Shown in pieces: positions 1,250-49,700 of a stretch of DNA of 64,000 nucleotides. Each line of letters opens with the position of its first letter. Positions within the stretch are counted from its first letter, which is position 1. Source of the DNA: Eledone cirrhosa (lineage: Eukaryota); assembly GCA_964016885.1 (NCBI GenBank), contig OZ024741.1, positions 11,408,001 through 11,472,000 on the forward strand, given 5' to 3'. Under the pieces are notes generated by a model that was given only the letters and a program-made list of their open reading frames with translations, did no database searches and was not told the DNA's origin. A program made the position numbers and the translations under genes.

Positions 1250-1490
1250 ATATATACACATATATATATACATATATATATATACATATATATATACACA
1301 TATATATATACATATATATATACATATATATATATATATACATATATATATACATATATATATACATATATATATACATATATATATATACATATATATA
1401 TTTACATATATATACATATATATATATACATATATATATATACATATATATATATACATATATATATAATATATATGTACATATATATAT
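1250..1490. repeat. (TA)n/(TACA)n microsatellite
   Basis: Directly visible; explains the spurious YI-rich ORFs. Confidence 0.95.
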
Positions 1491-1795
1491 GAATGTATGT
1501 ATAGTATATTTGGCAATATACCGCATGTTTAATTAAAAACATTTTGAAGACCATACGCTATCGGTTTTAAAGTAATGACTATGTCACTTACTTCTTTTCG
1601 GTGGAAGCAGGGAGTGCGTGGCTCTGATGATCGCCAACCAGCGTAAAACAGACTGTTAGCTTCTCTCCCTTCTTTCGCCAAAAAGAAGTAAGTGACATAG
1701 TCACTACTTTAAAACCGATAGCGTATGGTCTTCAAAATGTTTTTAATTAAACATACGGTATATTGCCAAATATACTATACATACATTCATATATA
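1485..1795 (+). repeat. Long inverted repeat (~117-bp arms) whose loop is a mutated type I hammerhead ribozyme
   Basis: 1485-1601 is the near-perfect reverse complement of 1678-1795. The loop has CTGATGA (1624-1630), stem II CGC/GCG, AAAA instead of GAAA (1645-1648), ACAG-A-CTGT and GTT instead of GTC. It is homologous to 19387-19582. Confidence 0.85.
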
Positions 1796-1814
1796 CATCG
1801 AGGCATATATACAT

Positions 1815-2148
1815 GGAAGCACATGGCTTAGTGGTTAGAGCATTGGCCTTTCAATCGAAAGGTTGTGAGTTAAATTCTCAGACCGGGTGATGTGTTGTTT
1901 CCTTGAGCAAGACAATTTATTTCACATTGCTCCAGCTTACTCAGCTGTAGAAATGAGATGATAGGATTGGGGTCCCTATCATTCCACTGTAAAGTGGTCG
2001 TGGAGGTGCCATAGCAAAAAGCACCCAGCACTCACTGTAAATGAGGTTGGTGTTAGGAAGGGCATCCAGCTGTAGAAATCAAGCCAAAATCAGTTCCCGT
2101 CCCACCCTTGCAAGCGGACGTAAAATGAAATGATGATGATGATGATGA
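1815..2148 (+). mobile_element. tRNA-derived SINE with RTE-like 3' tail and (GAT)n end
   Basis: A-box TGGCTTAGTGG, B-box-like GAGTTAAATTC, body CCTTGAGCAAGACA, tail GGTGTTAGGAAGGGCATCCAGC. A close copy lies at 7708-8055. Confidence 0.85.
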
Positions 2149-2329
2149 TCGCTATTTCGGAGGACCAATCCAAATATATATATATATATGGCAGAATTAA
2201 TGACAGCTCTATAGATGAACGGACTCATACGCGTGAGGTGAGTCGGGTCACCCCAACCCCTGGGAACTTACCCATAGAGCAGACAAGAACTGAGACCCGA
2301 CACCAGAGATACCGTGGTTCTTCTCGAAC

Positions 2330-2760
2330 TACCCAGGTCGATAACAGAAAATGTAATTGCAGGAACACCGCCACTTGCTCCATAGCTGGGAAATGCCTCA
2401 TCAAAAACATAGTCTACAACTGTCAGGTCTCCACTTTAGATAGAACCTTCAGGTATGTTGGAGCAACTGCCACTGAATTTAAGGATAGATGGTATAATCA
2501 CCACCATATCTTTAATAGATTAGATAAAAAAAATAGCACGGCGCTTTCTGAATTAGTCTGGAAGCTTAAATAACAGAATATAGAGCACTCCTTATCCTGG
2601 TCCATTTGCTCAGCCCAGCCATATAACGGCAGCACGGGCGTCTGTAATTTATGTATAGCTGAAACCTTTAATATTATTAGAGGCGGCCCTCTATTAATCA
2701 ATAGGAGAGTGGATTTTTTCAGTAACTGCCAACATAGAACCTCGAAAACCTTCCACAGGA
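2330..2760 (+). pseudogene. Penelope-like element fragment: GIY-YIG endonuclease preceded by a Cys-rich motif (Neptune-like)
   Basis: KCNCRNTATCSIAGKCLIKNIVY...RYVGAT...FKDRWYNH...STALSELVWKLK, then an in-frame stop, then CNLCIAE. Homologous to ORF 6137-6655. Confidence 0.85.
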
Positions 2761-3616
2761 TTTTTGGAAAGTAACCTACCACTAACTCCTCCCTTTTTAC
2801 CTTAGCCATAGAGGTCTCTCAATTAGCAAAAAACGGACAATCACACATTCAGGTAGTAGACAGCTAAGATCGTTTGCGCACTTACAAACAGTACTTGGTT
2901 TGTTTCCACAGAGTTCTTACTGCTGAGTGCACATTTACCACTACTTTAGAATACCTAGTTAGTAAATAGTTAGAATTATTACACACTCAGTTAAGACCGA
3001 TTACGCGCATTCACCATTACTTTAGAATACCCTAACCATTGAGTTCTCTCGGTTAGTAAATAGTTAGATGTATTACACACTCAGTTAAGCCCAATTACGC
3101 TCTTTATACATGACTCTACACACAGTACCCGGTTTCTTTACACACGGAGTTCCCACAGTTATGACTGGTCACGATCCTATCAATTGAACACTACACTAGG
3201 TTTTGATCCGTGATCATCTAACCATGGAGTGCTCAGGGTTACTGATTGGACAATATTACTTACACACCATTAATGGGCTTACACACATCCTCGGGGTTTT
3301 GCCATTCTTTTTTATTTTATTTTATTTTATTTTATTTTATTTTGGTGTTGGGTAACAACCTCCACCACTCAAACACCTATCTTAAAAGCCCAAGGGCCCA
3401 TATGACGGGAAAACGCACATACTGACACCTTAACTCAAAAACCCAACCCTACACAGAGCCCCTTGGTGGCCTACATGGTGGTTGCTTGCACGCACAGATT
3501 TGGGGACTCAGATTCTCAATGGGACAACGGCACATAGAGAGTTCGATATGAGCTGACAACTTGCTCTTCACATGGATGTGTATATACCAAAACATACACT
3601 TTTTAGACGATACGGG

Positions 3617-3837
3617 TCATCATCATCATCATCATTTCATTTTACGTCCGCTTTTTCCCTGCTTGCAAGGGTCGGACGGGAACTGATTCTGGCTTGATTT
3701 CTACAGCTGGATGCCCTTCCTAACACTAACTTCATTTACAGTGAGTGCTGGGTGCTTTTTTGCCGTGGCACCTCCACGACCGCTTTGCAGTGGAATGATA
3801 GGGACCCCAGTCCCTATCATCTCATTTCTACAGCTGG
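3617..3837 (-). mobile_element. 5'-truncated SINE (same family as 1815-2148) flanked by a 38-bp direct repeat
   Basis: Reverse complement of the SINE 3' half. The flanks 3578-3615 and 3838-3875 are identical except for 2 mismatches. Confidence 0.85.
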
Positions 3838-4295
3838 GTGTATATACCAAAACATACACTATTTAGAAGATACGGATGTTACAATTCAATCGATACACGT
3901 ATAGCAGAACATTGAACTGAATTTACTTGCGTGTGTATAGGGTTGCGGTTGACCCAATTTTTCCAATTTACATCGTCAAATTGAGATTTGACCAATATAA
4001 CATGTTGTTTTGTAAACTAACTTTCTTTGACCTCGCGTTGGTGTGTGTGTGAGTGTGTGTATGTACTCACTCACACTAACTGTGACCGACTGTAATTCTA
4101 CAGATTTGATGTTGAGATTAGACCCATCCAGCATCTTTTACAGCTATTGAGAGATAGAGACTTGATAGTTTTATGACCCTAACTGAGGACGATAGCAGTC
4201 AGCATGTTTTGGCTGCTTAAATCTTCATATGGGGGACAAAACTCTAGTGAGTGAACATCGTTAAATTTTCTCCCTCATATCAAGGATTTGAAGAC

Positions 4296-4387
4296 AATTC
4301 ATTTTCACCTGACGAGATCAGTGATAATCGATCATGGCCACACGATCGATCTATCTCTTATTGAAAAGTGTCGTGATTAAAATGATT
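4296..4387 (+). ncRNA. Degenerate type I hammerhead motif upstream of the Penelope ORF
   Basis: TCAC-CTGACGA (4309-4315), a long stem II containing ATCGATC/GATCGAT, GAAA (4363-4366), AGT-GTC-GTGA. Stem I TCAC/GTGA pairs, but stem III is imperfect. Confidence 0.55.
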
Positions 4388-4579
4388 GGAAATTTATACC
4401 ATGCCTTCGGATCTTTATTTTGATACAAATACTCCGTTTTACATCATCTAGCTGTTCCCATAAATGGAATTGGAGATATACAAAAGCGTGGAGAACTTAA
4501 TATTGCTAACAAAAGTTTATTGCACCATATGACACAACCAATAATACACCTTACTATATAACAACTATATATATATATA

Positions 4580-6655
4580 CCTACTCCTTCCAACACAACT
4601 TATACCAAACTGCTTATAGATAAAATCGAACAAGTCGTTAAAAGAATGGGATGGAAGGCAATGGTTTACGATGGACTATTCAGTGCTAATACAAATGATT
4701 GTTTTGACATAAAATCCCGTAAATATCCATCTAGAATTAAAGACATGGCCAACTTCGAATTAGACCTTGTTAATTTAATTAGTGATATCAAATTTCGTAA
4801 GTACAATAATAATTTTCAAACTAAACTTTCTAACGATATTTCTAATTTTAAAAATTCTACAAATACTTTTGTTCTTTCCGATAAAACTAAAAATCTCTTT
4901 GAAGTTAATAGTATTTTGTATAACCAACTGTTAACTAATAGTATCACCAACAAATATCAATTAACTAATAATAACACCTATAATACTATTAATAAAGAAG
5001 CTAAAGAACTAGCTAGTTCTTTAAAACTAGACAACCGGATTGAAAGCCTAGCTAAACGTAAAGCATATATTACCCTTAAATACCATAAATTAGACTTTAC
5101 TAATCGACCTAGTTGTAGACTGATTAACCCGGCTAAATCCGAAGTTGGCCTTGCAAGTAAAAAAATCTTAAGAAAAATAATTCTCCAAATTAGAACTAAG
5201 ACTGACTTATCACAGTGGTTAAACACATCATCTGTTATTTCTTGGTTTAATAATATACAAGGTAAAAATAAGTGTAGATTTACCCAATTTGATATTGTTG
5301 ATTTTTACCCCTCTATTACTGTTTCCTTATTAACTAATGCCTTAGAGTTTGCAAGACCCTTCATTAATATTTCTAAATTAGAAGAAGACATTATCTTTCA
5401 TGCTAGGAAAACTCTACTCTTTACTAATGAAAGTATTTGGGTTAAAAAGTCAAACCCTGAAAACTCTTTTGATGTTGCAATGGGTTCATATGACAGTGCG
5501 GATGTGTGTGAATTAGTAGGATTATTCCTTCTCCACACCCTTAAAGAGAAATTTCCGTCCCATAATATCGGTTTATACCGAGACGACGGATTGGCAGTTT
5601 CTCATACCACCAACGGCCATAACCTTGATAAATGCTGTAAAGATTTAATCAATACCTTTGCTAACCTAAACCTTAAAATTACTATAGATACGAACCTTAC
5701 CAATGCTAACTTTCTTGACATTAATCTTGATCTACTTACCGCCTCTTTTAAACCTTTTCATAAACCTAACGAGAATCTAAGATATATACACAAAGAGTCT
5801 TGCCATCCCCCTATAGTTTAAAAAAATCTTATTCCTAATATTAGCCGAAGGATTTCTACCTTATCTTCATCCCTAGACATTTTTAACAAAGCCCTTAATA
5901 ACAGCAGCTTTACAGAACATATTAAATATTTACCTACTCCTCCCCCTAAAACTAATCACAATAATAGGAAAAGGAAAATTATTTGGTTTACACCCCACCC
6001 CTTCGCTCTAACTGTCAAAACTAATGTAGGAAGGAAATTCCTTGACCTCCTAGACAAACATTTTCCTCTTAATCATAGATATTATAAGATATTTAATAGA
6101 AATGTAGTTAAAATCAGTTACTCTTGCTGCCCATCAATGAAGTCTAAAATCACCAATTCTAATCGGACGAGAATAAATCCAGGATGCAGTTGCAGGGAGC
6201 CGGATGAATGCCCATTACAGGGCAAATGTAATACCAAATCCGTTGTATATGAGGCCGAAGTGACACCTTTGATTAACAACCAGCCAGCCACAAGTGAACG
6301 ATATGTTGGCATGACTCAGGACAGGTTCAAAACCAGGTTTTATGCACATGTCGCTTCTTTTAAACACTCTGATAAAAGGACAGCCACGGCTCTCACAAAT
6401 AAGGTGTGGGAATTCAAAGATAAAAACATCCCGTACTCTATCGATTGGTTTATTTTAGACCATTCGAGGGAATACCAAAGGAGCACAAAGAATTGTTCTT
6501 TGTGTACCACTGAAAAATTTAGAATTCTACAAAACTTGAAAGCCACTTCAACTTGCCTGAACTCCAAGACCGAGATCTTCAGATGTTGTCCTCACCTGAA
6601 ATCACATCTGCTCTGTAACTGGATTGACATTCCTACGATGACTCAACCACCTTGA
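4580..6655 (+). pseudogene. Penelope-like retroelement (RT + GIY-YIG), disrupted
   Basis: RT motifs CRLINPAKSEVG, QFDIVDFYPSI, VAMGSYDSADVCELVGLFLL, GLYRDDGL and NFLDI. In-frame TAA at 5819-5821 and a frameshift near 5995, then CSC...CPLQGKC...VVYEA...RYVGMT...FKTRFYAH...CSLCTTEK. Confidence 0.93.
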
Positions 6656-6849
6656 ACTTCTCTGCTCTTTACGTCTTACATCCACTACGATTTTTATTAC
6701 TCTCTGAACTCACTTTCTATACCCTTATATTCTTTTTCTCCCTTATCTCCCCTTATATTTAAACTTTTCCTATGTTATTTATTTTCCTTAATCCCCCTAC
6801 TTTCTACGTTACCCTTTACATACCCACCTTTTTTATTTATAGATATTTA

Positions 6850-6938
6850 TTTCTGTGTGTATGTATGTGTTGCGTATATGTATATGTGTATATATATATA
6901 TATATGTATATATGTGTATATAATTATATATATCTGTA

Positions 6939-6969
<31 letters not shown>

Positions 6970-7072: not shown

Positions 7073-7151
<79 letters not shown>

Positions 7152-7166
7152 TTATATATATATATG

Positions 7167-7207
<41 letters not shown>

Positions 7208-7332: not shown

Positions 7333-7614
7333 ATAGCCGTCGAAACGGCTTGAGCTCTGCCGTCGGGGTCATACTTTGTCCTATATATATATATGTATAT
7401 ATATATATATTTGTATGGTTGTGTGTGTGTGTATGTATATATGTGTATGTATATGCATAATTACATACAGAGTGATTTAATGTTTATTTTCATTGATTAT
7501 TTGCTCCAAGAATTGTTGAGTGCTCTAAATCAGCTATAAACATTTATACCTTTATTTATTTATTATTTGTCGTATTCCCAACTATTTGTTTACCCCTTCC
7601 ATCTTTTTATTTTT

Positions 7615-7700: not shown

Positions 7701-7707
7701 AAGCAAT

Positions 7708-8055
7708 GGAGGCACATGGCTTAGTGGTTAGAGCATTGGCCTTGCAATCGAAAGGTTGTGAGTTCAATTCTCAGACCGGGTGATGTGTTGTTTCCTTGAG
7801 CAAGACACTTTATTTCACATTGCTCCAGTTTACTCAGCTGTAGAAATGAGATGATACGGACAGGGGTCTATATCATTCCACTGCAAAGTGGTCGTGGAGG
7901 TGCCACGGCAAAAAAGCACCCAGCACTCACTGTAAATGAGGTTGGTGTTAGGAAGGGCATCCAGCTGTAGAAATCAAGCCAGCATCAGTTTCCGTCCCAC
8001 CCTTGCAAGCAGGGAAAAAGCGGACGTAAAATGAAATGATGATGATGATGATGAT
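7708..8055 (+). mobile_element. tRNA-derived SINE, full length
   Basis: A-box TGGCTTAGTGG, B-box GAGTTCAATTC and (GAT)n tail; copy of 1815-2148. Confidence 0.88.
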
Positions 8056-8690: not shown

Positions 8691-9162
8691 TAATTATATT
8701 ATGTTGTTTATTACATAACTATATTTATATATCATCATTCATCATCATCATTTCATTTTACGTCCGCTTTTTCCCTGCTTGCAAGGATGGGACGGGAACT
8801 GATTCTGGCTATATAGTATATATTGCAAGCAGGGAAAAGCAGACGTAAAATGATGATGATGATGATATATATATATATATATATACATACACACAGTATG
8901 TATATAGTATTCATGGGTAAACAGTCATTCTTATACAAGAGGACTTCAAGAAAGGAATGATCAAGAAAGCTCACAAATACTGGGACATCCTGATCACCAA
9001 GGGAAAGTACCCTCGTCAAGGAAAGGGATCTCCTTTTTTTAAACCTCCAGGCTCATGCTGGGAGTAGAACCAATAATAATTATTATTATAATTAGGTAGT
9101 CAGGTGAGAAATGCATGCTAGAAATTAAATTTAGAAAAAAAAGCAGAAATATTTTTTTCTAC

Positions 9163-9217
9163 CTGACATTCGGAAAGGCATAAAAATTTGTTCGCCAGTA
9201 TCAGGGTGTATGATGGC
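9163..9217 (-). CDS. SFXN5: Sideroflexin-5-like, coding exon 3 ([19 protein letters not shown])
   Basis: Contains the sideroflexin hallmark HPDTGE..FMPFRMS. TTTCAG acceptor and GTAGA donor; 55 bp, in phase with the preceding exon. Later exons were not found in this window. Confidence 0.93.
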
Positions 9218-9369
9218 CTGAAATAGTGAGAGACATTGAGAAAATAAAGTGCAAGTGGAAAGAAATAATGCAGATAAGTCTATTACAGCTTATAAGTTGT
9301 TTTTCACAGCTTATAAGTTGCTCTGGTCCATTAGACACCCTCTCACTTTCTTCTCTTCTTTATCTTCTT

Positions 9370-12953: not shown

Positions 12954-13127
12954 CTGTTTAATCTTCTGAGCCTCCCACAACTGTTTGTTATGGATATTGT
13001 GAGGAAGCTGACCATTGTTGTAGAGTTCTAACAACTGGATGGATGACTGCAGTCTCTTGTCACTCACCAATAATGTCCTGGGGTCAATGACATCCAAGAA
13101 ATGGAGCAAACGGCCTCGGAACGTCTC
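12954..13127 (-). CDS. SFXN5: Sideroflexin-5-like, coding exon 2
   Basis: ETFRGRLLHFLDVIDPRTLLVSDKRLQSSIQLLELYNNGQLPHNIHNKQLWEAQKIKQ matches the SFXN5 pattern GRFRHFLDIIDPRTLFV...QLWSAQKIKQ (recalled). TTTTTAG acceptor and GTAAG donor; 174 bp, phase 0/0. Confidence 0.95.
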
Positions 13128-13242
13128 CTAAAAATAACAACAAGACTATATATGCCTGTATATATATGTATATATTTAATATAGAAAAGGTTTCTACGGG
13201 ACTAGAACTGTTTCATTTGGGAGAAATCATATATACATATAT

Positions 13243-13556
13243 ATATAAGTTAAAACAATGAAATAAAAATTCAAGTCAATAGGAATATACTTCACTGCTT
13301 TACGATCGTTTCTAGGTGATAATAATACATCGTACGCATATTTCGTTATCGATCTATGTAAGGTTAGTTACAAAATATCAAATATGGAATATATTTACCT
13401 ACGTGTATATTCCGTATTTGATATTTTGTAACTAACCTTACATAGATCGATAACGAAATATGCGTACGATGTATTATTATCACCTAGAAACGATCGTAAA
13501 GCAGTGAAGTATATTCCTAATGACTTGAATTTTTATTTCATTGTTTTGACTTATAT
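13243..13556. repeat. Near-perfect palindrome, ~150-bp arms with a 12-nt loop
   Basis: 13243-13393 is the reverse complement of 13406-13556 with about 3 mismatches. The right arm contains GAAACGATCGTA. Confidence 0.95.
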
Positions 13557-13625
13557 CATGACTCTGTTTTCCTTTTGATGTTTTATTGTTTTCCGGGATT
13601 TATTTTAACCTACAACATTTTTAAC

Positions 13626-15232
13626 ATCATCATCATCTTCGTTTAACGTCCATTTTCCACGCTAGCATGGGTTAGACGGGAGTTGTCCCACTTGAGGCAA
13701 GGTTGGTCGGGTGACCATGTCTCGCTCATATAGGACTATCTGGCAGGTTTTCTACGGCTGGATGCCCTTCCTAACACCAACCACATTTACAGTGTGGGAC
13801 TGGGAACTTTTTACCGTGTTACAGCGTGGACTGTGTGTTTTTCTCGTGACACCTACACGATCTCAATCTCATTTATTTGGACTGAATGTTGTGGTACCAA
13901 CTTTATAGAGAGAGGGTGGTGTTGGTGGGAGTGGAAGGATAGGGTAGGGGTTAGTGGGTTGGGGTGTATATTTGGTTAAGAGGTGCCTACTGACTGTAGG
14001 TTTCGCTTTGTACATAGGCAAGGCGGGTCTTCTGTATTACTGCGTAGCGCCAAAGATCTCGGTCCAGTGACATTGTCTTAGAGAGGTGCAAGTGTGTAAG
14101 GTCGGAATTTATCAGATCGTCCCAGGTTTTTCTGGGTCTACCTACTCCGTAACTACCATCAATTTTGATCGCCCTGCTCTTTTTTATACAGCTGTCGTCT
14201 TTCATGTGCATCACGTGGCCATACCAACGTAGTCTTCTCTCGAGTAAACAGCATCTGATCCTTCTTATTCCTAATTTCTTACTTAGTTCATTTATGCTTT
14301 GTCGTTCACGTATATTACTATTACACATCCAGCGGAGCATGCATGCTTCGTTCCTTTCCGGTCTACGCAGGTCCTCTGCACGTAATGCCCATGTCTCACT
14401 GCCATGTAGCATTGCTGTTCGTATGCAGGCATCATACAATCTGCCTTTGATTTTTAGAGAGAAACCTTTTGTGGCCAACAGCAGTATAAGCTCTCTGAAC
14501 TTTTTCCATCCCGTTCTGACTCTGGCTACTGTACTTTCAGAACACCCTCCACCACTGCTGATTTTGTCACCCAGGTAACGGAAAGTGTCTACTATTTCTA
14601 TAGAACCATCTGGGCAATAGAAGGGGCTAGTATCCTGTGTACACTTGCTACCTATTGCACCTGAGCATCGGCCACATATAAAGTCTACGTTCTTAGATAG
14701 TTTACCTGTGATACCACTACATCTTTTATGTACCCATACTTTGCATTTGGGACATAAAATTGAATTTCTGCCTAGTCCTTTCCTACACACTGAGCAAGGC
14801 CATTTCGCTGAGGGTACCTGTGCCTTATTTTCTTTTCTACAAACTAGGACTTTAGTCTTAGACAGGTTAATTTTAAGGCCTTTTGATTCTAGGCCATGCT
14901 TCCATGTTTGGAATTTCTTCTCTAGTTCGGCCATTGATTCAGCTATGAGCGTTAGATCATCTGCGTATAGGAGTTCCCATGGGCAGCCGGTCTTGAACTC
15001 CTCTGTTATAGCCTGAAGGGCAATAATAAATAGGAGGGGGCTAAGGACAGAGCCTTGGTGAACACCAACTTTTACACTAAATTCTTCACAATATTCATTG
15101 TTAATTCTAACCTTACTGACTGTTTCATTATACATAGCTTGTATAGCTCTCACAAGCCCTTCATCTACACCTAGTTTTCTAAGAGCCCACCAGATAATGG
15201 AGCGGGGGACTCTGTCAAAGGCTTTTTCCAAC
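13626..15232 (-). mobile_element. 5'-truncated RTE-clade LINE: RT, PHD-like Cys cluster, C-terminus, 3' UTR and (GAT)n tail
   Basis: LEKAFDRVP, GVHQGSVLSPLLF, LLYADDL, CSVC...CPKC..WVHKRC...CGRC, FRYLG, LHGSETW and RRLRWYGHV in an open frame ending at 13987. Confidence 0.92.
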
Positions 15233-15292
15233 ATATGGATTATATTGAGTTCTTCATGCAGACTAGACCCCACAACTAACCGTGGATATTTC

Positions 15293-15323
<31 letters not shown>

Positions 15324-15437
15324 CAAAGAAGACCAGACTCCCCATGGGCACAGACCGAAGTATATATACAGTATACACCATTCCACCCCAACCTCCCATA
15401 CATCTCCCATGAGGACAGGCCGAAGTATAAATATACC

Positions 15438-15892
15438 CACACTGTAAAGTGGTCATGTAGGTGTCATGACAAAAAGCACCCAGTAACTCTGTAAAATGAT
15501 CATGTAGGTGTCATGACAAAAAGCACCCAGTCCACACTGTAAAGTGGTTGTGTAGGTGTCATGACAAAAAGCACCCAATCCACTCTGTAAAGTGGTCATG
15601 TAGGTGTCATTACAAAAAGCACCCAGTCCATACTGTAAAGTGGTCGTGTAGGTGTCATGACAAAAATTACCCAGTACTCACTGTAAAGTGGTCATGTAGG
15701 TGTCATGAAAAAAGCCCCCAGTACTCACTGTAAATGAGGTTGGTGTTAAGAAGGGCATCCAGCTGTAGAAATCAAGCCAAAATCAGTTCTGTATGAGCAA
15801 GACATGGTCACCTGACCTGGCATTGCCCACAACAGGACAACTTGTTTAACCCATGCTAGCAGGGTAAAATGGAAGTAAAACAGTGATGATGA
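15438..15892 (+). repeat. SINE/RTE tail carrying ~6 tandem copies of a ~47-48-bp internal unit
   Basis: CACTGTAAAGTGGTCATGTAGGTGTCATGACAAAAAGCACCCAGT is repeated over 15438-15730, followed by the normal tail. Confidence 0.85.
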
Positions 15893-15946: not shown

Positions 15947-15976
<30 letters not shown>

Positions 15977-15978
<2 letters not shown>

Positions 15979-16092
15979 GGAACGAGTAGGACCCCAACGG
16001 CTGAGCTCAAGCCATTTCGACGGCTAATTCTGAGTCCAGAATTAGCCGTCGAAACGGCATGAGCTCAGCCGTCGGGGTCCTACTCGTTCCTA
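15977..16092. repeat. Palindrome (~56-bp arms, AGTC loop) built from the 3' half of a hammerhead-like motif
   Basis: The right arm reads GAAACGGC-ATGAGCTCA-GCCGTC-GGGGTC. The same motif occurs unpaired at 7334-7383. Confidence 0.85.
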
Positions 16093-16224
16093 TTACCCAC
16101 TCTACTACCCTAAGTATTGAGTACTTTGGTGCGTTATGGTTCGTCTGGTTCCTTACCACATTTCCTTCGCTATATATATATATATATATATATATATGAC
16201 TTAACATATCCTCAAAAATGTTGA

Positions 16225-18633: not shown

Positions 18634-18974
18634 GCACAGGCAAAAATACCACATATTTCCACCCGTTTTAAATTCCTGCCGTAAGCAAGGGGAAAGCATT
18701 GTCCTAATGAGAGCCAGAGCTCCAAATGAATAGACAGTTATCCTCCGCTGTTTCTGCTAGGATCTGCTAGATGGCGCTGGTCATCATCCTTCTATTCATA
18801 GCTGGGCATTCAAAATGTTTATTTATTAAACATAACATATATCTTTAGATATAAGAAATTCACATATACGTATGTATACAGCTATGCTGAAGCAAAATTT
18901 ATATATATATATATATATATCGTTTCTGAATTTGTTTAGCACGATTCTTTATCTGAAATCGTGTGTTGAAACCG

Positions 18975-19206
18975 ATATTGTTATACTTTGGGAGGGTCAT
19001 GTTGCCAATAAGAAACACACGCACCAGTTGCTTTCACTTCAATTTATTATATATAAACAACTATCTGGTTGTGGAACCAACCAACCAACCAGAAAGTTAT
19101 AGATTTGTAGATTTGTAAATTTATAAATATATAATAAATTGAAGTGAAAGCAACTGGTGCGTGTGTTTCTTATTGGCAACATGACCCTCCCAAAGTATAA
19201 CAATAT
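18975..19206. repeat. Inverted repeat with ~80-bp arms
   Basis: ATATTGTTATACTTTGGGAGGGTCATGTTGCC...TTCAATTTATTATAT is the reverse complement of about 19126-19206; the spacer has its own TCTGGTTG/CAACCAGA hairpin. Confidence 0.92.
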
Positions 19207-19222: not shown

Positions 19223-19585
19223 ATTAAACATACGGTATATTGCCAAATATACTATACATACATTCATGTATATATCGCTATTTCAGAACACCAATCCTAA
19301 TACCTAATTTTGTCTCGACCAACAATCGCGCTGTATAATCAGCTCCTGATTATTACTGGAATTCTATAAGAATCCAGCTTCTATAATTTTCGGTGGAAGC
19401 AGGGAGTGCGTGACTCTGATGATCGCCAACCAGCGTGAAACAGACTGTCAGCCTCTCTCCCTTCTTTCGCCGAAAAGAAGTAAGTGACATAGTCACTACT
19501 TTAAAACTGATAGCGTATGGTCTTCTAAATGTTTTTAATTAAACATACGGTATGTTGCCATATATACTATACATACATTCATATA
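19223..19585 (+). mobile_element. ~315-bp hammerhead-bearing unit with terminal direct repeat (retrozyme or Penelope pLTR-like)
   Basis: ATTAAACATACGGTAT(A/G)TTGCCA(A/T)ATATACTATACATACATTCAT starts at 19223 and again at 19538 (spacing 315); hammerhead at 19387-19476. Confidence 0.75.
19387..19476 (+). ncRNA. Type I hammerhead ribozyme with conserved core nucleotides
   Basis: Long stem I (TTTTCGG/CCGAAAA, AGGGAG/CTCCCT, GACT/AGCC with one mismatch); CTGATGA 19416-19422; stem II CGC-CAACCA-GCG preceded by a U-U pair; GAAA 19437-19440; stem III ACAG-A-CTGT; GTC with predicted cleavage after 19449. Confidence 0.78.
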
Positions 19586-20858
19586 TATATATGTGTGTGT
19601 TTGTCATGAGGGACAAGGCAGGGTTTTATCAATCTTGGCTTATATATTTGTTAATCCTTATCTATTTCCTTATCTAAACACACACACACACACACACACA
19701 CAGAAACACACACACAGACACACACACAAAACACACATGAATTCTTTTTGAGGATGTGACAATGTTATACCTGTGTGTATATATATGTGTGTATGTATGT
19801 TTGTGTGTGTGCGTGTGTGTATATCTGTGTATGTATATGTCCATGTAAAGTAGACTGTGTAACAGTCACCATATATTTTCAGATCTAATCACACAAGTGA
19901 CACACAGACACCTGATGTTTCCCACTGTTATTGACCTGACTAATGTCGCAGTAAAGGGCCAGAAAGTTCCTCTCTAAGGTGCAAGCCATGGTGAGGTGTT
20001 TTATAGAACATCAGTTGTCATTCTTGTATGACAGTCTTCCATCTTCATGTCACAATTGTTATCCAAGGGAAAGACAGAGGCTGACAGCTTGGCACCAGTG
20101 ATGTCACAACTCATATATATACATTACCTTTGTGTGGACTTTTCCATGCTGGCATGGGTTGGATAGGACTTTTTGAGGTAATTTTTTACAGCTGAATGTG
20201 CTTCCTGACACCAACCCTTTTAGTCAGTTTTTACAACACACAGGAGATACAGTGTACCTATTGTAAACCAGATACACACAATTCTTATATACACTATATA
20301 TGACATTTTGTCAAATGAAAAAGGCAAAGATTGATACAGCTTGATACCAGTGCCATTCAACAGAGTAGAAGGGAAAATGTACAAGGGTACAATGTACAAG
20401 GGCCGAGCCAAAGAATCAAAATCATGACTTCATGACTATGAGTCCAACACCCTAACCATTAACCTACATACACTGGCCAACTTTACATGCTACTAAAATA
20501 CTCATTTATTAAAACCCTTTTGATACCAACCCACATGAAACTGCCCCTTGTGTTATGATACAAAACTGCACATTTTAAAATTATCATCATCACCGTTTTT
20601 CCATGCTTGCATGGGTTGGACGGGTCCTTTTCAGCATCTCTTCACTTGTTGCATTCCTTCATCATCTCCTCTGTGAGTCTCAGTAATTTAAGGTCAGCTC
20701 TCACCACATGTGCCCAGGTCTTTCTCAGTCTACCTATACTGTGCCTTCCTTCCACTGGCATTTCTTGGAACTTCTTCACCCAGCGATCATCATCCACACA
20801 TATCACATGTCCGTATCAACGCAGTCTTCTCTCTTGCACACCACCAGATTCCTCTTAA

Positions 20859-23691: not shown

Positions 23692-24032
23692 GAAGGTGTG
23701 AGGCTGAGTGGTTTGAGAATTGGATTCACAATTGTGAGGTTGTGCATTTGATTCCTGGACCGAGTCATGTGTTATGTCCTTGAGCAAGACACTTTATTTC
23801 ACGTTGTTCCTTCTACCTGGAGTTGCGACTGATAGAGAGTATTAGCAACTGGAAAGACCAACGGAAACATTGTTTCCTCGGTCTAATTTGATGAAAAGTC
23901 GATCAACTATCATATATCCAAAATGGCTGACTGAATATACATGATTTCCCCCATTTTTTTCTCATCCCCCCCCCCCCGTTCCTTTCTCTTCTCACTCTTT
24001 ATCTTTGCATTTATCTTCTATTTCTAACTCTA

Positions 24033-37700: not shown

Positions 37701-40700
37701 CTAGTTGAGGGGGTAATGTAGTGACATATACACTACACACTGTCACTAGCCAGTCTTGCTGGGGTTGACACTAGTTGAGGGGGTAATGTAGTGACATATA
37801 CACTACACACTGTCACTAGCCAGTCTTGGTGGGGTTGACACTAGTTGAGGGGGTAGTGTAGTGACATATACACTACACACTGTCACTAGCCAGTCTTGGT
37901 GGGGTTGACACTAGTTGAGGGGGTAATGTAGTGACATATACACTACACACTGTCACTAGCAAGCCCTGCTGGGGTTGACACTAGTTGAGGGGGTAATGTA
38001 GTGACATATACACTACACACTGTCACTAGCAAGCCCTGCTGGGGTTGACACTAGTTGAGGGGGTAATGTAGTGACATATACACTACACACTGTCACTAGC
38101 CAGTCTTGCTGGGGTTGACACTAGTTGAGGGGGTAATGTAGTGACATATACACTACACACTGTCACTAGCAAGTCTTGGTGGGGTTGACACTAGTTGAGG
38201 GGGTAATGTAGTGACATATACACTACACACTGTCACTAGCCAGTCTTGCTGGGGTTGACACTAGTTGAGGGGGTAATGTAGTGACATATACACTACACAC
38301 TGTCACTAGCCAGTCTTGGTGGGGTTGACACTAGTTGAGGGGGTAATGTAGTGACATATACACTACACACTGTCACTAGCAAGTCCTGCTGGGGTTGACA
38401 CTAGTTGAGGGGGTAATGTAGTGACATATACACTACACACTGTCACTAGCCAGTCTTGCTGGGGTTGACACTAGTTGAGGGGGTAATGTAGTGACATATA
38501 CACTACACACTGTCACTAGCAAGTCTTGGTGGGCTTGACACTAGTTGAGGGGGTAATGTAGTGACATATACACTACACACTGTCACTAGCCTGTCTTGCT
38601 GGGGTTGACACTAGTTGAGGGGGTAATGTAGTGACATATACACTACACACTGTCACTAGCCAGTCTTGGTGGGGTTGACACTAGTTGAGGGGGTAATGTA
38701 GTGACATATACACTACACACTGTCACTAGCCAGTCTTGGTGGGGTTGACACTAGTTGAGGGGGTAATGTAGTGACATATACACTACACACTGTCACTAGC
38801 CAGTCTTGGTGGGGTTGACACTAGTTGAGGGGGTAATGTAGTGACATATACACTACACACTGTCACTAGCCAGTCTTGGTGGGGTTGACACTAGTTGAGG
38901 GGGTAATGTAGTGACATATACACTACACACTGTCACTAGCCAGTCTTGGTGGGGTTGACACTAGTTGAGGGGGTAATGTAGTGACATATACACTACACAC
39001 TGTCACTAGCCAGTCTTGGTGGGGTTGACACTAGTTGAGGGGGTAATGTAGTGACATATACACTACACACAGTCACTAGCCAGCCTTGGTGGGGTTGACA
39101 CTAGTTGAGGGGGTAATGTAGTGACATATACACTACACACTGTCACTAGCCAGCCCTGCTGGGGTTGACACTAGTTGAGGGGGTAATGTAGTGACATATA
39201 CACTACACACTGTCACTAGCAAGCCCTGCTGGGGTTGACACTAGTTGAGGGGGTCATGTAGTGACATATACACTACACACTGTCACTAGCAAGCCCTGCT
39301 GGGGTTGACACTAGTTGAGGGGGTAATGTAGTGACATATACACTACACACCGTCACTAGCAAGCCCTGCTGGGGTTGACACTAGTTGAGGGGGTAATGTA
39401 GTGACATATACACTACACACTGTCACTAGCCAGTCTTGCTGGGGTTGACACTAGTTGAGGGGGTAATGTAGTGACATATACACTACACACTGTCACTAGC
39501 AAGCCCTGCTGCGGTTGACACTAGTTGAGGGGGTAATGTACTGACATATACACTACACACTGTCACTAGCAAGCCCTGCTGGGGTTGACACTAGTTGAGG
39601 GGGTAATGTAGTGACATATACACTACACACTGTCACTAGCCAGCCCTGCTGGGGTTGACACTAGTTGAGGGGGTAATGTAGTGACATATACACTACACAC
39701 TGTCACTAGCAAGCCCTGCTGGGGTTGACACTAGTTGAGGGGGTAATGTAGTAACATATACACTACACACTGTCACAAGCAAGCCCTGCTGGGGTTGACA
39801 CTATTTGAGGGGGTAATGTAGTGACATATACACTACACACTGTCACTAGCAAGCCCTGCTGGGGTTGACACTAGTTGAGGGGGTAATGTAGTGACATATA
39901 CACTACACACTGTCACTAGCCAGTCTTGGTGGGGTTGACACTAGTTGAGGTGGTAATGTAGTGACATATACACTACACACTGTCACTAACCAGTCTTGGT
40001 GGGGTTGACACTAGTTGAGGGGGTAATGTAGTGACATATACACTACACACTGTCACTAGCCAGCCTCGGTGGGGTTGACACTAGTTGAGGGGGTAATGTA
40101 GTGACATATACACTACACACTGTCACTAGCCAGTCTTGGTGGGGTTGACACTAGTTGAGGGGGTAATGTAGTGACATATACACTACACACTGTCACTAGC
40201 CAGCTCTGCTGGGGTTGACACTAGTTGAGGGGGTAATGTAGTGACATATACACTACACACTGTCACTAGCCAGTCTTGGTGGGGTTGACACTAGTTGAGG
40301 GGGTAATGTAGTGACATATACACTACACACTGTCACTAGCCAGTCTTGGTGGGGTTGACACTAGTTGAGGGGGTAATGTAGTGACATATACACTACACAC
40401 TGTCACTAGCCAGTTTTAGTGGGGTTGACACTAGTTGAGGGGGTAATGTAGTGACATATACACTACACACTGTCACTAGCCAGTCTTGGTAGGGTTGACA
40501 CTAGTTGAGGGGGTAATGTAGTGACATATACACTACACACTGTCACTAGCCAGTCTTGGTGGGGTTGACACTAGTTGAGGGGGTAATGTAGTGACATATA
40601 CACTACACACTGTCACTAGCCAGTCTTGCTGGGGTTGACACTAGTTGAGGGGGTAATGTAGTGACATATACACTACACACTGTCACTAGCCAGCCCTGCT

Positions 40701-42193
40701 GGGGTTGACACTAGTTGAGGGGGTAATGTAGTGACATATACACTACACACTATCACTAGCCAGTCTTACTGGGGTAGACACTAGTTGAGGGGGTAATGTA
40801 GTGACATATACACTACACACTGTCACTAGCAAGCCCTGCTGGGGTTGACACTAGTTGAGGGGGTAATGTAGTGACATATACACTACACACTGTCACTAGC
40901 AAGCCCTGCTGGGGTTGACACTAGTTGAGGGGGTAATGTAGTGACATATACACTACACACTGTCACTAGCCAGTCTTACTGGGGTTGACACTAGTTGAGG
41001 GGGTAATGTAGTGACATATACACTACACACTGTCACTAGCCAGCCCTGCTGGGGTTGACAGTAGTTGAGGGGGTAATGTAGTGACATATACACTACACAC
41101 TGTCACTAGCCAGTCTTACTGGGGTTGACACTAGTTGAGGGGGTAATGTAGTGACATATACACTACACACTGTCACTAGCCAGCCCTGCTGGGGTTGACA
41201 CTAGTTGAGGGGGTAATGTAGTGACATATACACTACACACTGTCACTAGCCAGCCCTGCTGGGGTTGACACTAGTTGAGGGGGTAATGTAGTGACATATA
41301 CACTACACACTGTCACTAGCCAGCCCTGCTGGGGTTGACACTAGTTGAGGGGGTAATGTAGTGACATATACACTACACACTGTCACTAGCCAGTCTTGGT
41401 GGGGTTGACACTAGTTGAGGGGGTAATGTAGTGACATATACACTACACACTGTCACTAGCCAGCCCTGCTGGGGTTGACACTAGTTGAGGGGGTAATGTA
41501 GTGACATATACACTACACACTGTCACTAGCCAGTCTTGGTGGGGTTGACACTAGTTGAGGGGGTAATGTAGTGACATATACACTACACACTGTCACTAGC
41601 CAGCCCTGCTGGGGTTGACACTAGTTGAGGGGGTAATGTAGTGACATATACACTACACACTGTCACTAGCCAGTCTTGCTGGGGTTGACACTAGTTGAGG
41701 GGGTAATGTAGTGACATATGCACTACACACTGTCACTAGCCAGTCTTGGTGGGGTTGACACTAGTTGAGGGGGTAATGTAGTGACATATACACTACACAC
41801 TGTCACTAGCCAGTCTTGCTGGGGTTGACACTAGTTGAGGGGGTAATGTAGTGACATATACACTACACACTGTCACTAGCCAGTCTTGCTGGGGTTGACA
41901 CTAGTTGAGGGGGTAATGTAGTGACATATACACTACACACTGTCACTAGCCAGCCCTGCTGGGGTTGACACTAGTTGAGGGGGTAATGTAGTGACATATA
42001 CACTACACACTGTCACTAGCCAGCCCTGCTGGGGTTGACACTAGTTGAGGGGGTAGTGTAGTGACATATACACTACACACTGTCACTAGCCAGTCTTGCT
42101 GGGGTTGACACTAGTTGAGGGGGTAATGTAGTGACATATGCACTACACACTGTCACTAGCCAGCCCTGCTGGGGTTGACACTAGTTGAGGGGG
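28785..42193. repeat. 70-bp tandem satellite, ~191 copies (13.4 kb), inside the long SFXN5 intron
   Basis: Unit AATGTAGTGACATATACACTACACACTGTCACTAGC-[10-bp variable]-GGGGTTGACACTAGTTGAGGGGGT; the ORF track has no ORF here. Confidence 0.98.
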
Positions 42194-43950: not shown

Positions 43951-44016
43951 CTGGTCAAAGCGGGATGAGTTGAGTTTGAAAGGAGGGTATTCATCGTGTG
44001 TATCACCAACAGACAT
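43951..44016 (-). CDS. SFXN5: Sideroflexin-5-like, first coding exon (MSVGDTHDEYPPFKLNSSRFDQ)
   Basis: PPFKL...RFDQ matches the SFXN5 N-terminal PPFQLGKPRFQQ (recalled). CAG/GTAAA donor; 66 bp, phase 0, joins ETFRGR in frame. A TTAG acceptor 12 nt upstream of the ATG suggests an unlocated 5' UTR exon. Confidence 0.85.
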
Positions 44017-44734
44017 TATAACTGGACTCTAAGTAAATATGTGTGCGTATGTATGTGTATTTATTTATAAGTGACACTGGAATTCTGTTGACATCCCACC
44101 AGAGGGCAGTGTGTATGATAAATTGTCAAATGAGAGTTACTTCCCCTTAATGCGTTGGTTCTCTGTTATTTTTGAAGAAAGCAGTGGGGTGTTTGTAAAC
44201 TGTGTCGTAAAAGAGATATATTGTATTTCAAAAAGGTAAAAAAATACAAATTGAAGTTGGTAATAAAGTTTTTATAACACTTTATTTTTTACAATAAAGA
44301 AATATATTAGTTTAATGTTTAATATAATAAGAAAGGTTACATAAAAACTTTATTTTCCGAAGTACACAGTAGAGAGTCGTCGTTTTATTCACTGTTGTAT
44401 AAAAAGAGATATAATAATACAATGCTTACAAAACGGAAACATAAACAAATATAATATAAAGGAAAGGGAAAACAGAAAAAAAGAAAGGAAAAGAAAGAAA
44501 AAAGAAAAAAATTTATCTGGGACCACAACAAAAGGCAGACGAAAGGGGCGGTCAACCGAGTCGGTACCAGAGTAAAAGATAACAGTATCGCAAGGAGCAC
44601 TGGGAAAGCTCTCTAATGATTTTTTAGGCAAGCCAGCACGCCGGCAGCGTTACCTCGGGTGGTGGCGAGGTTGATGCTAAGGGACAGGGATGTGTTTACA
44701 GAGCTGAGTTAAAGTGAGAGTGATTAACAGCCTG

Positions 44735-45352
44735 CTGACTGCTAAGAGTCAGAAGTGTGTTTTCACTGCTTAGCTATAGCATGACTGAAATACAGACTGC
44801 TGAAGGCCAGAGGTGTGTTTTTACTGCTCAGCTAAGGTGACACTAACTAAAAGACTGCTGAGGGCCAGAGGTGTGTTTTTACTGCTCAGCTAAGGTGACA
44901 CTAACTAACAGACTGTTGTAGGCCAGAGGTGTGTTTTTACTGCTCAGCTAAGGTGACACTAACTAAAAGACTGCTGAGGGCCAGAGGTGTGTTTTTACTG
45001 CTCAGCTAAGGTGACACTAACTAACAGACTGTTGTAGGCCAGAGGTGTGTTTTCACTGCTCAGCTAAGGTGACACTAACTAACAGACTGTTGAGGACCAG
45101 AGGTGTGTTTTCACTGCTCAGCTAAGGTGACACTAACTAACAGACTGTTGTAGGCCAGAGGTGTGTTTTCACTGCTCAGCTAAGGTGACACTAACTAACA
45201 GACTGTTGTAGGCCAGAGGTGTGTTTTCACTGCTCAGCTAAGGTGATACTAACTAACAGACTGTTGAGGACCAGAGGCTTGTTGCCACTACTCAGCTAAG
45301 GTGACACTGACAGACTGCTGAGGACCAGAGGTGTCTTTCCACTGCTCACCTA
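44735..45352. repeat. ~58-bp minisatellite, ~10 copies
   Basis: Unit GACTG(C/T)TG(A/T)(G/A)GGCCAGAGGTGTGTTTT(T/C)ACTGCTCAGCTAAGGTGACACTAACTAACA. Confidence 0.9.
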
Positions 45353-46579
45353 AAGCACTTTTCATTTTCATTTCAATCTTTCTGCAGTGACTATAACTTC
45401 AGTTTATTGTGAAAATTTTGTAAATATTATTTTGCATTCATTTATTTATTCAATCATAATGCCCTGCTAGACAGGCCATCTCTTCCATTTTCTCACATAT
45501 ACCAACCTCACCTTGGACGTGATCTCAATACTAAAAAAAGAATTATTGTTATTACACTGCGATTGCTTTCAGATCAGTAGGACAACATTCATTATGGTAT
45601 TTAAATATTTAGTATGGGCTCTGTTAAGTTTTACATACCCAAGATACACCGTATATCACAGTATATTTACTGATAAAATGACAAGTCAGACAATCATATT
45701 GGTGGCCTCCCCACAGCCCCGGTGGACAGAATGGAGAAGGCGTTGGACTAAAGTTAGAAAATCTCCATTATTTCACTTCCTCTGTGTTTCACCCTTCCCC
45801 ACCAGAAACTATAAGACATGGCGAGCCTCTTAAATCACTGCATTCTATTGACCTAGTTTATTGACGCTTTCTAATCTCTTTTCTATAACCTTCTTGAATG
45901 AATCGTTAAACACATAAATATACATACATACACACATATACATACACATACATACACATATATGCATACATGCATAGACATATATACATACACACACATA
46001 CATTTATACACATACACATTCATGCATATACACACACATATACATACGTGCATATATACATATACATATACATACATACACACATACATACATGCATACG
46101 CACATACAGACACATACGCACACACACATACAGACACATACGCACACACATTCCAATATACAGTCTTGCAAATACACAAACTTACTCAAGTATACGAATT
46201 TATATTCACGTATATATACACATGTTCAATTTTACAAACATTATACACAAATCCATAAATCCATATATATATCTACTCAAATTTACAAGCTTAGATACAT
46301 ACACACACACATTGAGGCAGGGTAGGGGAGGCTGACTGGGTCGTAGCCGGGGGGGGGGGGATAATATTTTAAAGCCCCAAATACATTTGTTTACTATTAT
46401 AATATATACATATATACATTAGATTACATAAACATACATACACTCACACATACACATACACACTCACACACACACATACATACATACATACATGATGGCT
46501 GCCGCCACGTTATCGAGTATGGCCATTGCACGAAAAAAAGAAGAAAAAAAAACAACATAATAACGACAATAATAATAAT

Positions 46580-46769
46580 AATAATTGTTTCTACTTTTGG
46601 CACAAGGCCAGCAATTATCCAGTACATTACTGGTACTTTATTTTATCGACCCCGTAAGGATGAAAGGCAAAGTTAACCTCGGCGGGATTTGAACTCAGAA
46701 CATAAAGGGCCGTAGCTATGCTGGAAAGCATGTCCCAGCCTCTACCGATACTGCCAATCCACCGCCCTT
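46580..46769 (-). mobile_element. Second tRNA-derived SINE family
   Basis: Minus strand TGGCAGTATCGG...GAGTTCAAATCCCGCCGAGGTTAACTTTGCCTTTCATCCTTACGGGGTCGATAAAATAAAGTACCAGT. Copies at 62440-62630, 43670-43850, 43460-43560, 24845-24960 and 17285-17430. Confidence 0.8.
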
Positions 46770-46784
46770 AATAATAATAATAAT

Positions 46785-49700
46785 GATTTCTTTATTAACC
46801 ACAAGGGTTGACATAAAGTATACATTAAGGACAGTGCAGGACGGTACAAATGGGCATTTCTGCGTGTAAAGAACAAAAACAGAGGATGTAACATAAAAAT
46901 AACAATGAAAAATTCCCCAATAGGGGGAATTTTTCATGGTTATGTCCTTAATGTCTACTTTATGTAAACCCTTGTGGTTAATAAAGAAATCATTATTATT
47001 ATTATTATTATTATTATTGGGGAGACTTCGGAGGGACATTTGTGGAGAAAGCCCAGTAAAAGGCCACAGTGACCCTGACCACCAAGGCAAGTGCCCTCTC
47101 CCAGTTTTCCACCTTTAATTTACAGATACGTACTCAGAGTAGGCCCATTCACTCGGGCCATTCTTGCTTCTCTCACCCAGTAGCCGGGTCCTCGTCTATG
47201 AAGCCTATCTAAGTCAAGCACACAGATCCCGAATTTGTGGTCCGTGTAGCTGACTATCTTGAATTGTGGACAGCCTATGCTAGACCTATCTATTTCCCTA
47301 CAAAATACTCTATCTAGATATGATCTGGATGACCCTATTCGATTTGTCCAAGTCCACATTGGCACATTCGGGAAATCCAATCGGTACCTGTCAGACAGTT
47401 CAAACCGCCTGAGCAGGTTGGTGAGACTCTTGCACCCTCCTCCCCTATCCGCTAATCCCACACAGTCCCAGCGTGCATCTAAGATCCCGTTCCAGTCGCC
47501 CACTAACACTAAAGAGCGGGACGTTCCAAGAAAGGTCTCCAAGCCACGCGCATTTATGCTGCCTATTCTGAGTGAGGTCATGTTGAAATGGAGTGGAAAA
47601 GATGGGAAAGACCTCTTGCCGTACTTTTCGCAGAGGAAGGATGGTTTCTCCATCCCTTTTCACTTGATCGTCTGGTGAAGGGACCGTTGAATCGTCCCTT
47701 CGGCTGGTCGTCGGTTCTTCTATGAGTATGTCCGAATATACTCTCCGGTTGAGAGTCCCTCCTAGGTCTCTGAAATCACCAACTACGTTGGGGAATTTCG
47801 TTTTAATGTTTGTGTATTGTTTCTGTGCTATTTTAACCAGTCTTATGTTCGTTGGCGTTTTGATTGGTGCTGCTATTATGTAGTCGTGCTGTGGAATGTC
47901 TGTGTGTTCAATTATGTAAGTCATTAGTTTCTTGTTGTGTGTATTTATTGCCGTGCATTTATTTTTCTGTGGGTGGGGTGTGGTTCTGCTATTTTCTTGT
48001 CGTTGTTGCTGGGTGTGTGTATTTTGTTGTTGTGTTTGCGATGTTGGTGTTTGTGGTGGTGGTGTTGAAGGTGTTGTTGTTGTTGTTGGCGGTGGGGTTG
48101 TCGCCGGTGGTGATGGTGGTGCTAGTGTGGGTGGTGATGCTGTTGGTGGTGTTGCTGCTGTGAGTCTCTTTGCAGTAGCCTTTACCCTTTTTTCATTTCT
48201 TTCCTCCCTTTTCGAAGGCGACGATGCGCTGCTTCTGCGTTTGTGCCTTCTTACGACCTTTTGCCATCCCTCTCCCACCTCACACTTCATGTCTGATTCT
48301 GTGAGGTCGGGGAGGGGTACCAGCTCCACTCTTTCACTTGTTGTTGTTGGTGATGTTTGCAGTGGAGTCTCTGTTGCAGCTGCATTTGGTATTACTGTTG
48401 TTGTTGTTAATACTTCCACTGCTGCTGCTGTTCTTGATTTCCGTGGCGTGGGTATGGGTGCCACGGACCTATCGTTCCTAGTTGCCGCTTGTCCTGTTGC
48501 TGGTAGCCGTGGAGCCGGTTTCGGAAGGAGGGGGTTTTTTCTCCTTTCTCAGGGTCTTCTCGTTGCAGAAGGCCCTGAGGTGAGTCTTCGATCCACAGCG
48601 AAAGCATTTCGGGCGTTTGCCCTCAACACTTATGGGCAGTTGAGTGCCGTTATCGAAGTCTATCACATCCGGGATAGCTTCGATGCACTCCTGGTTGGTT
48701 TGGATTAACATCTCAATGAAGGTGCCAACCCAATCTTCTCTTACTTTTTTCTGTACTTGCAGTACAGTTGTTTTGTCCTCGATTCCGACGAGGACAGACG
48801 CGGCCAGCCAAGAAGGGTCCATCCCCGGGGGGGGGGGGGGGTCAGTTTGACCCTCACAATTTTTTGCCCGCAGTAGGAGGACACCAACACCATTTCCTCG
48901 CTCCTTAGGGTCACTAAGGATTGAGCCTTTGCCTCCTGGGGTGTGGCAAAAAGCACGTCTACGGTGGCATATTTCTTGCCTGGGTGATATGCGTTTTCCG
49001 CTGCCACACATACCGTAAGGCTTTTTGTATTTGAGCCTCTGTGGCTCTTTCAACCCTACGGGATTTTGTGCTTACTGTACGGTACGTGACCGTACAGTGC
49101 TGTTGGGTTTCGAAACATTTTTCGGCTGCCTTGCAGATTGCTCGGTGTCCGATTTTCGTCACCATCTTCTTCGCTTCCTGTAATTCCTCACTTGTTATGA
49201 GGATGGTTTCCAGGTTCTTTGCGATACCTGCAAACGAGATTGGTTTTTCTTTGCTGCTGTTGTTGTTGTTGTTGTCGTCAGAGCTGCTGTTACTTTTGTT
49301 GTTGCTGCAGGTACTACGACTACTGCCGCCGCCGCTGTTGCTGTGGTTGTTGTTGTTGTTGCTACTGCTGCTGTTGTTGCTGTTGCTGCTAATGCTGTTG
49401 TTGTTTATGCTGCTGCTGATGCTGTTGCGGCTGCTACTGTTGGTTTCCTTGTCACTGTTGCTGCTGCTGCTGTTATTACGGCTGCTACTGCTATTATTCA
49501 TGACGACAGACGAATGAAATGGGTTTTCGGATTTACCGCACATCTTTTTCGTCGTTGTCGTCGTCGTGGAGAAATGTTCCATGTTTTGCACGTGATTTTG
49601 TAAACTATTTTTCTTTACTGGCGTCGCTTGCGAAAGAGAAGGGAGGGAGAGAGACACATTTAGAGAAGGGAGGGAGAGAGACAATCTACTCTCTGCTGTA

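Follow-up and report, generated by a model that had tools for sequence, protein, structure and literature searches.

Introduction

Endonuclease-bearing (EN+) Penelope-like elements (PLEs) of the Neptune, Penelope/Poseidon and Naiad groups are described as carrying an inverted 5'-truncated copy, a pseudo long terminal repeat (pLTR) and an optional tail (PMC8557442; PMC3846280; sources given by accession or DOI are cited here from excerpts). How their tandem and inverted ends form is stated to be unresolved (PMC8557442), and self-priming from palindromes at the inverted junctions was proposed by Arkhipova et al., 2013 (PMC3846280). Published work already covers the end architecture, the link to hammerheads and the idea of self-priming; an earlier note on the DNA studied here had offered the connection of ribozyme hairpins with self-priming as possibly new, which it is not. 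That DNA is a 64,000-nt stretch of the Eledone cirrhosa genome (contig OZ024741.1, positions 11,408,001 to 11,472,000; the window), in which six palindromes had been listed (1485, 8731, 13243, 15977, 18975 and 46770). All six were recovered by inverted-repeat scan, self-comparison and reading by eye; they are real but represent more than one phenomenon. Four of them (1485, 13243, 15977 and 18975, families A to D in that order) have the known PLE structure, an inverted 5'-truncated pLTR beside a direct pLTR. They are read as head-to-head pLTR ends of PLEs or of non-coding passengers in (TA)n, likely made by both nicked target strands priming at two fixed sites of an RNA, with the two cDNAs joined afterwards.

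The window families share with EN+ PLEs, as excerpted, head-to-head truncated pLTRs, a tail at one end that equals the start of the open reading frame (ORF), (TA)n targets and a hammerhead-like motif in the pLTR; family D also has a reverse transcriptase (RT) followed by a C-terminal GIY-YIG domain with a CxxxCxxC linker. They differ in tail length (~27-130 nt here, 30-40 nt in the published descriptions). The EN+ PLE papers leave the mechanism open or prefer self-priming in the parts cited, whereas the geometry of the arms here is better explained by two priming events and offers a testable lead on the open question of PLE end formation.

Family A resembles animal non-LTR retrozymes (bioRxiv 10.64898/2026.07.22.740005; for minimal hammerheads, PMC4209133) in having a non-coding monomer of 315 nt, arranged in tandem, and a type I hammerhead motif, which lies at the tip of a long stem. 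The feature compared was tandem 150-400-nt monomers with a hammerhead in each. Unlike those elements, as excerpted, family A has mostly 1-1.5 monomers per copy, with PLE-type inverted arms and tails; among the copies seen, none was established with two complete hammerheads. cDNA snap-back has been described for R2 proteins (PMC11371274). The junction at 46770, possibly that at 1485, and about six short internal inverted arms are similar, but here this is a minority class, and 46770 would further require a return of synthesis to the template.

Structure of the PLE-type families

Families A-D were defined by searches of the own genome (3.0 Gb), taking the best-scoring 30 loci per query; first-look candidates numbered 722-2352 per family. 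All four families insert in (TA)n. Copies of each end at one of two alternative 3' points, of which one adds a tail of ~27 nt (A), ~130 nt (B), ~78 nt (C) or ~57 nt (D). An inverted partner was scored at 86 of 158 loci, a few complex ones included. In each of the four PLE-type palindromes one arm bears a 3' tail, (TA)n lies on the flanks, and the family has a hammerhead-like motif. The boundaries given earlier had left out these tails, which lie on the left at 18975 (55 nt, starting at 18920), on the right at 13243 (reaching 13627), up to 16171 at 15977, and past a short interspersed element (SINE) at 1485 (~2146-2175). The SINE was apparently inserted later than the family A copy; since it displaces the tail, 1485 was scored as having neither tail.

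Family D has a single ORF with RT followed by C-terminal GIY-YIG (L112/L273/L274), which places it among the EN+ PLEs. Motifs DKS-G, LYPSID, YVDD and YSIRC..IVYIGET were read by eye in these three copies; profile matches were weak (RVT_1, E 3e-4, below the curated cut-off; I-TevI GIY-YIG, E 0.1). Atlas neighbours were at 0.95-0.97, and in one set 27% of members had GIY-YIG. The linker before GIY-YIG reads CIDKKCITC, fitting the Neptune-clade CX2-5CxxC pattern as far as the linker motif goes. In the full-length tandem L273, whose ORF is frameshifted, the upstream pLTR and tail are continuous with the ORF and the downstream pLTR is tail-less; the tail corresponds to the beginning of the ORF, and AT/AT is found at both end points. 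The ORF (L273:839-3406) also has a long Asn/Thr/His-rich insert, likened to the N-rich inserts reported in rotifer PLEs (PMC3846280, in part). Families A, B and C have the features of PLEs or PLE passengers (inverted truncated copy, optional tail, (TA)n target); a linked RT-endonuclease ORF was looked for and none was established within 1.5 kb flanks.

No hammerhead family was among 114 Rfam matches at E<=5, so that ribozyme calls rest on motif scans and folding. The motif scan gave a type I core at 19416 (family A); a type I core is likewise predicted in family D. Families B and C are pLTR-like ends with a long stem II and predicted cores TTGANAA (B and some C copies) or CTGAGAA (other C copies). 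TTGANAA is presumably the U3-A8 variant. Hammerhead 3' halves without a CTGANGA half were found at 13487 and 16051, as had been noted. A further family C 3' half lies at 7334-7375, adjoining a long (TA)n tract, and another family has a minimal hammerhead-like motif at 24030-24070 (+; CTT CTGATGA AGG..CCT GAAAC ATTA AG).

Arm geometry and tail side

Seventy junctions were mapped after removal of four reciprocal duplicates, 14 complex or short rows and three unanchored loci (L008, L009, L063). The complex or short rows were inspected afterwards except L047 and L052; L008 is non-nested. Fold-back of a target-primed cDNA copies only existing content, and the short arm must therefore nest in the long one, with no non-nested pairs expected. 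In 27 of the 70 pairs the 5' ends lay >=20 nt apart: the tailed arm reached further 5' in 11 (nested) and the tail-less arm in 16 (non-nested). In these 16 neither arm was copied from the other, because the tail-less arm extends beyond the 5' end of the tailed one. At 18975 the tail (18920-18974) is on the left arm, the short one, and the tail-less right arm goes 79 nt further 5'; 13243 is non-nested by 17 nt, with the tail on the right and the extra 5' stretch on the left. The earlier statement that the duplicated arm is the part reverse-transcribed first thus fails at 18975 and, narrowly, at 13243. The largest offsets were at L110 (1295 nt), L109 and L099. Five further loci (L036, L046, L149, L253, L255) join abutting or non-overlapping pieces of the RNA (for example positions 6-158 plus 169-287 in L046, and 61-138 plus 1-64 in L149).

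A tail was present on exactly one arm in 32/37 pairs of families A, B and D, whereas the tail rate of single copies (23/61) predicts 47% (p=7e-7). This excess implies that the two arms of a pair arose together, in one coordinated event. Two simple criteria that need nothing but a genome, arm nesting and the side of the tail, distinguish self-priming from two-ended priming; here the result is in favour of two-ended priming.

Junctions and arm 5' ends

Native helix register was found at 2/70 junctions, 1485 and L098. Among flush junctions, microhomology of >=2 nt occurred in 7/9 of family A (null 17%), 3/10 of D (null 11%) and 0/10 of C. The proposal that ribozyme stems are general self-priming points is contradicted by these register and family C counts and by the 16 non-nested pairs. 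Inserted or unassigned bases were present at 39/70 junctions, some of them probably due to reference polymorphism. Three family C junctions (L077, L088, L075) have a long A-run/T-run at the palindrome centre, which suggests slippage or A's added at the cDNA end.

In families B and C more arm 5' ends than expected fell within the hammerhead region (p<=1e-5); A (p 0.13) and D (p 0.84) showed no such enrichment. The windows for this test were chosen after the data had been seen. Clusters of arm ends lie at -34 to -23 in B, -6 to +10 in C and near -110 in D, with a small one at 238-250 in A. Those of B and C both begin at TCATT, which we take to be an initiator-like word, making transcript starts a candidate cause. 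The B cluster also coincides with the 5' strand of stem I, so that stalling at structure is a candidate as well. One family D arm (L100) begins exactly at the predicted hammerhead cut, too few to count.

Proposed mechanism

Observed directly are two 3' ends per family, one of each in most pairs, often non-nested arms, and some loci with non-overlapping pieces. In the mechanism that we propose, an endonuclease would nick both strands of the (TA)n target. Priming would start from one target 3' end at the tail end of the RNA and from the other at its pLTR end, with an AT/AT site used in both cases, and both cDNAs would be extended toward the RNA 5' end until the RNA ended or the enzyme stalled. 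The cDNAs might then be joined by short annealing or blunt end-joining. The template would be one RNA in most cases and two in some. The piling up of arm 5' ends would mark the template RNA start or an enzyme stall; as it lies inside the hammerhead region in B and C, it could explain why the first half of the ribozyme is missing there.

In vitro, a PLE protein has been seen to nick and to extend each of the two target strands, and the tail is delimited by two start sites (PMC11167929, in part). Family members with pieces that abut or do not overlap, as at the five loci above, recall twin priming of L1. In this process, described by Ostertag and Kazazian in 2001, the second target strand reportedly primes on the RNA, giving a 5' inverted segment and junction microhomology. 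Unlike in L1 twin priming, both start sites are fixed here and the cDNAs usually overlap, so that inverted repeats arise and not mere inversions. A literature search of limited coverage found no publication applying twin priming to PLE inverted ends.

A stronger form, tentatively put forward and rather less likely than the mechanism above, is that twin priming is obligatory in PLEs: a single ribonucleoprotein would prime both target strands, one at each of the two RNA sites (pLTR end, tail end), and each cDNA would be extended as far as the RNA 5' end. If true, one step would account for the tail being on one end, for the inverted pLTR and for the absence of the ribozyme's first half, and successful templates would be transcripts that start inside the hammerhead and are unable to cut themselves.

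Alternative explanations

The strongest rival is self-priming, in which cDNA (the earlier note) or antisense RNA (Arkhipova et al., 2013) folds at a native hairpin and copies itself, and endonuclease trimming or deletion of the tip leaves one tail. It has published precedent (PMC3846280; PMC11371274; both in part). Several observations speak for it and against two-ended priming. 1485 is nested and, like L098, in native register, and family A junctions are rich in microhomology. Both arms end <=15 nt apart in 30/33 C pairs and 8/17 D pairs, leaving near-zero loops. Two D pairs end together far upstream (about -495 and -345), which is natural under fold-back and obliges twin priming to invoke a shared RNA 5' end or stall. 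Short inverted arms ending internally at L002, L063, L066, L073, L113 and L118 look like true snap-backs, and a later one-sided deletion at the hairpin tip could un-nest some pairs. The two arms of a pair diverge less than arms from different loci do (A 5.7 vs 7.0%, B 1.2 vs 2.4%, C 3.9 vs 4.9%, D 1.5 vs 2.3%), a pattern that a single source RNA or locus would give and that fold-back would give too. Frangieh et al., as excerpted, found the start site without strand difference, which does not account for the rule of one tailed and one plain arm.

Against self-priming stand the rarity of native register, the non-nested majority of unequal pairs, the five loci with little or no sequence in common between the arms, the flush C junctions, and subfamily alleles that are discordant between arms. 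In family C, allele A29 is linked to a second marker (9/10 A copies vs 4/19 T copies), and the partner arm of A29 carries T in 7/8 pairs, A29 copies being enriched by the query because of the choice of the best-scoring 30 loci. L028 has different alleles in its two arms at six polymorphic sites listed for the family. Discordance at such inherited sites points to two templates in a subset of loci. Two other candidates for template differences were rejected: D sites 55/60 are an 8-nt repeat-unit (slippage) indel and were not counted, and A sites 360/365 reflect tail versus target sequence. A nested short arm, native register and arms identical at birth, as hairpin-primed fold-back would give, are not found overall, although 1485 and 46770 show them singly. 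We consider self-priming unlikely as the general route; fold-back is probably a minority one, and 1485 is assigned to neither.

Duplication of element ends by DNA-level events after insertion, through replication template switching or break-induced fold-back at hairpins or (TA)n, would fit 46770, where the long interspersed element (LINE) resumes at the turn point, and several inverted repeats in random tiles are centred on (TA)n. The PLE arms, in contrast, end at two family-specific RNA start sites, those inspected do not extend into unique flank, and a tail missing from one arm could not have been copied from that arm, which makes this origin improbable. Still less probable are two independent insertions in opposite orientation into the same (TA)n: the families are abundant and the SINE pair at 8731 could plausibly have arisen so, but the excess of one-tailed pairs, the rarity of (TA)n at the junctions inspected and the frequency of inverted partners all speak against it. 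Library or assembly fold-back is hardly credible, for although no contig spanning 18975 was among the independent-read contigs listed (contigs break in repeats), arms differ by 0-9% and by family-specific tails, SINEs were later inserted inside palindromes, junctions vary between loci, and other family D head-to-head joints occur in contigs or reads of X1, X5 and X12 (X1 may be the source sample).

The families behind the palindromes, earlier called unrelated, are of PLE type in four of six cases; the view of the palindromes as products of retrotransposition by hammerhead-bearing families, and not of library preparation, was borne out.

Table 1. Coordinates of the palindromes, their arms and neighbouring features (numbered from the first letter of the window).
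Feature	Position	Strand	Remarks
Inverted repeat 1485	arms 1469-1614/1665-1810		92% identity
Family A inverted tail-less arm (retrozyme-like)	1481..1601	-	monomer positions 368 to 247; 7-nt overlap TTTTCGG with other arm
Family A direct arm	1595..1800	+	loop with decayed type I hammerhead motif 1620-1661, GAAA read as AAAA
tRNA-headed SINE within family A tail	1813..2149	+	(ATG)n tail; 91.5% to 7706-8035
Family A 3' tail	2146..2175	+	SINE-displaced, then (TA)n
Inverted repeat 8731; two SINE 3' ends head to head	8731..8865		arms ~35-50 nt, three differences (by eye); 13-nt TA-rich spacer
Sideroflexin-family coding exon, host gene	9161..9229	-	E 0.039, over family cut-off
Sideroflexin-family coding exon	12954..13128	-	acceptor-like TTTTTAG on right side
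Inverted repeat 13243	arms 13243-13393/13406-13556		98% identity
Family B inverted tail-less arm	13243..13410	-	carries loop; reference 157 to -11
Family B direct arm, partial tail	13406..13627	+	reference 6 to 228; hammerhead 3' half at 13487
Inverted repeat 15977	15979-16090		91% identity
Family C inverted tail-less arm	15976..16032	-	
Family C direct arm	16033..16171	+	~78-nt tail; hammerhead 3' half at 16051
Short inverted arm of family D (Neptune-like PLE pLTR), tailed	18920..19054	-	~18920-18974 is start of element ORF
Inverted repeat 18975	arms 18975-19054/19127-19206		100% identity
Family D tail-less arm	19048..19206	+	79 nt further 5'; 7-nt overlap TATATAT
Non-inverted family A copy, 1.2 monomers	19223..19590	+	type I hammerhead motif 19412-19453 within long stem 19387-19476
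Inverted repeat 46770	arms 46769-46833/46943-47007		97% identity
LINE 3' untranslated region (UTR) with inverted copy of own 3' end	46770..47018		~70 nt skipped; insertion at CCCC-AATA-GGGG; LINE resumes at 47019
Reference LINE copy	49995..55911	-	(TTA)n tail, 3' UTR, EEP + RT + zf-RVT ORF 50309-53896, upstream ORF

LINE and SINE palindromes

The earlier claim that the turn lies at a native hairpin is true of 1485 (7-nt overlap within the extended stem I) and of 46905 (CCCC-AATA-GGGG). LINE copies were counted in the own genome by exact sequence patterns: the native hairpin is present in at least 5151 copies and the fold in two. The second folded copy, L272 (G000:C2:12518858-12521882), lies ~1 Mb away and is 99.9% identical over 3 kb to window ~45400-48400; it is a recent segmental duplication or an assembly duplicate, and the fold accordingly counts as one event. 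The 46770 palindrome is likely a single snap-back-and-return template switch, made by RT or DNA polymerase. The pair at 8731-8865, which was absent from the 25 longest inverted-repeat pairs and also missed by the masked scan, has no native hairpin at its centre; none of 32 other SINE ends formed a head-to-head pair.

Host gene, genome survey and other features

A sideroflexin-family gene on the minus strand has more exons past the left edge of the window; with those in Table 1, they place 1485 and 8731 in introns. The 13243 palindrome lies just past the acceptor-like site of the second exon listed, and the description of palindromes as intronic is supported for these three. Being common, the palindromes could hypothetically be a source of many intronic double-stranded RNAs on which editing or silencing might act.

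A survey of 60 random 10-kb tiles (600 kb) gave 81 inverted-repeat rows in 37 tiles, some rows overlapping the same locus. (TA)n flanked both sides in 42/81 rows, against 9% in the null, and 14/81 overlapped families A, C or D. Inverted repeats centred on (TA)n were seen at L172:3947-4124, L177:2899-3157, L198:2537-2756 and 3083-3187, and L203:7620-7859, and possibly arose by DNA-level fold-back at TA tracts or by paired insertions.

In-frame open stretches of 419 and 277 codons with one stop between them lie at 4562-6655 (+), with no Pfam match at E<=0.01. Non-LTR ORFs are present at 13987-15510 (-; RT then PHD-like finger) and 57227-60849 (+; RT plus zf-RVT, divided between two frames). Matches to the 5' part of U2 small nuclear RNA at 27709-27853 (-; 51.7 bits) and 27045-27208 (-; 23.2 bits) are probably pseudogene fragments. 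A 70-bp satellite occupies 28785-42193 (192 copies, 94% matches).

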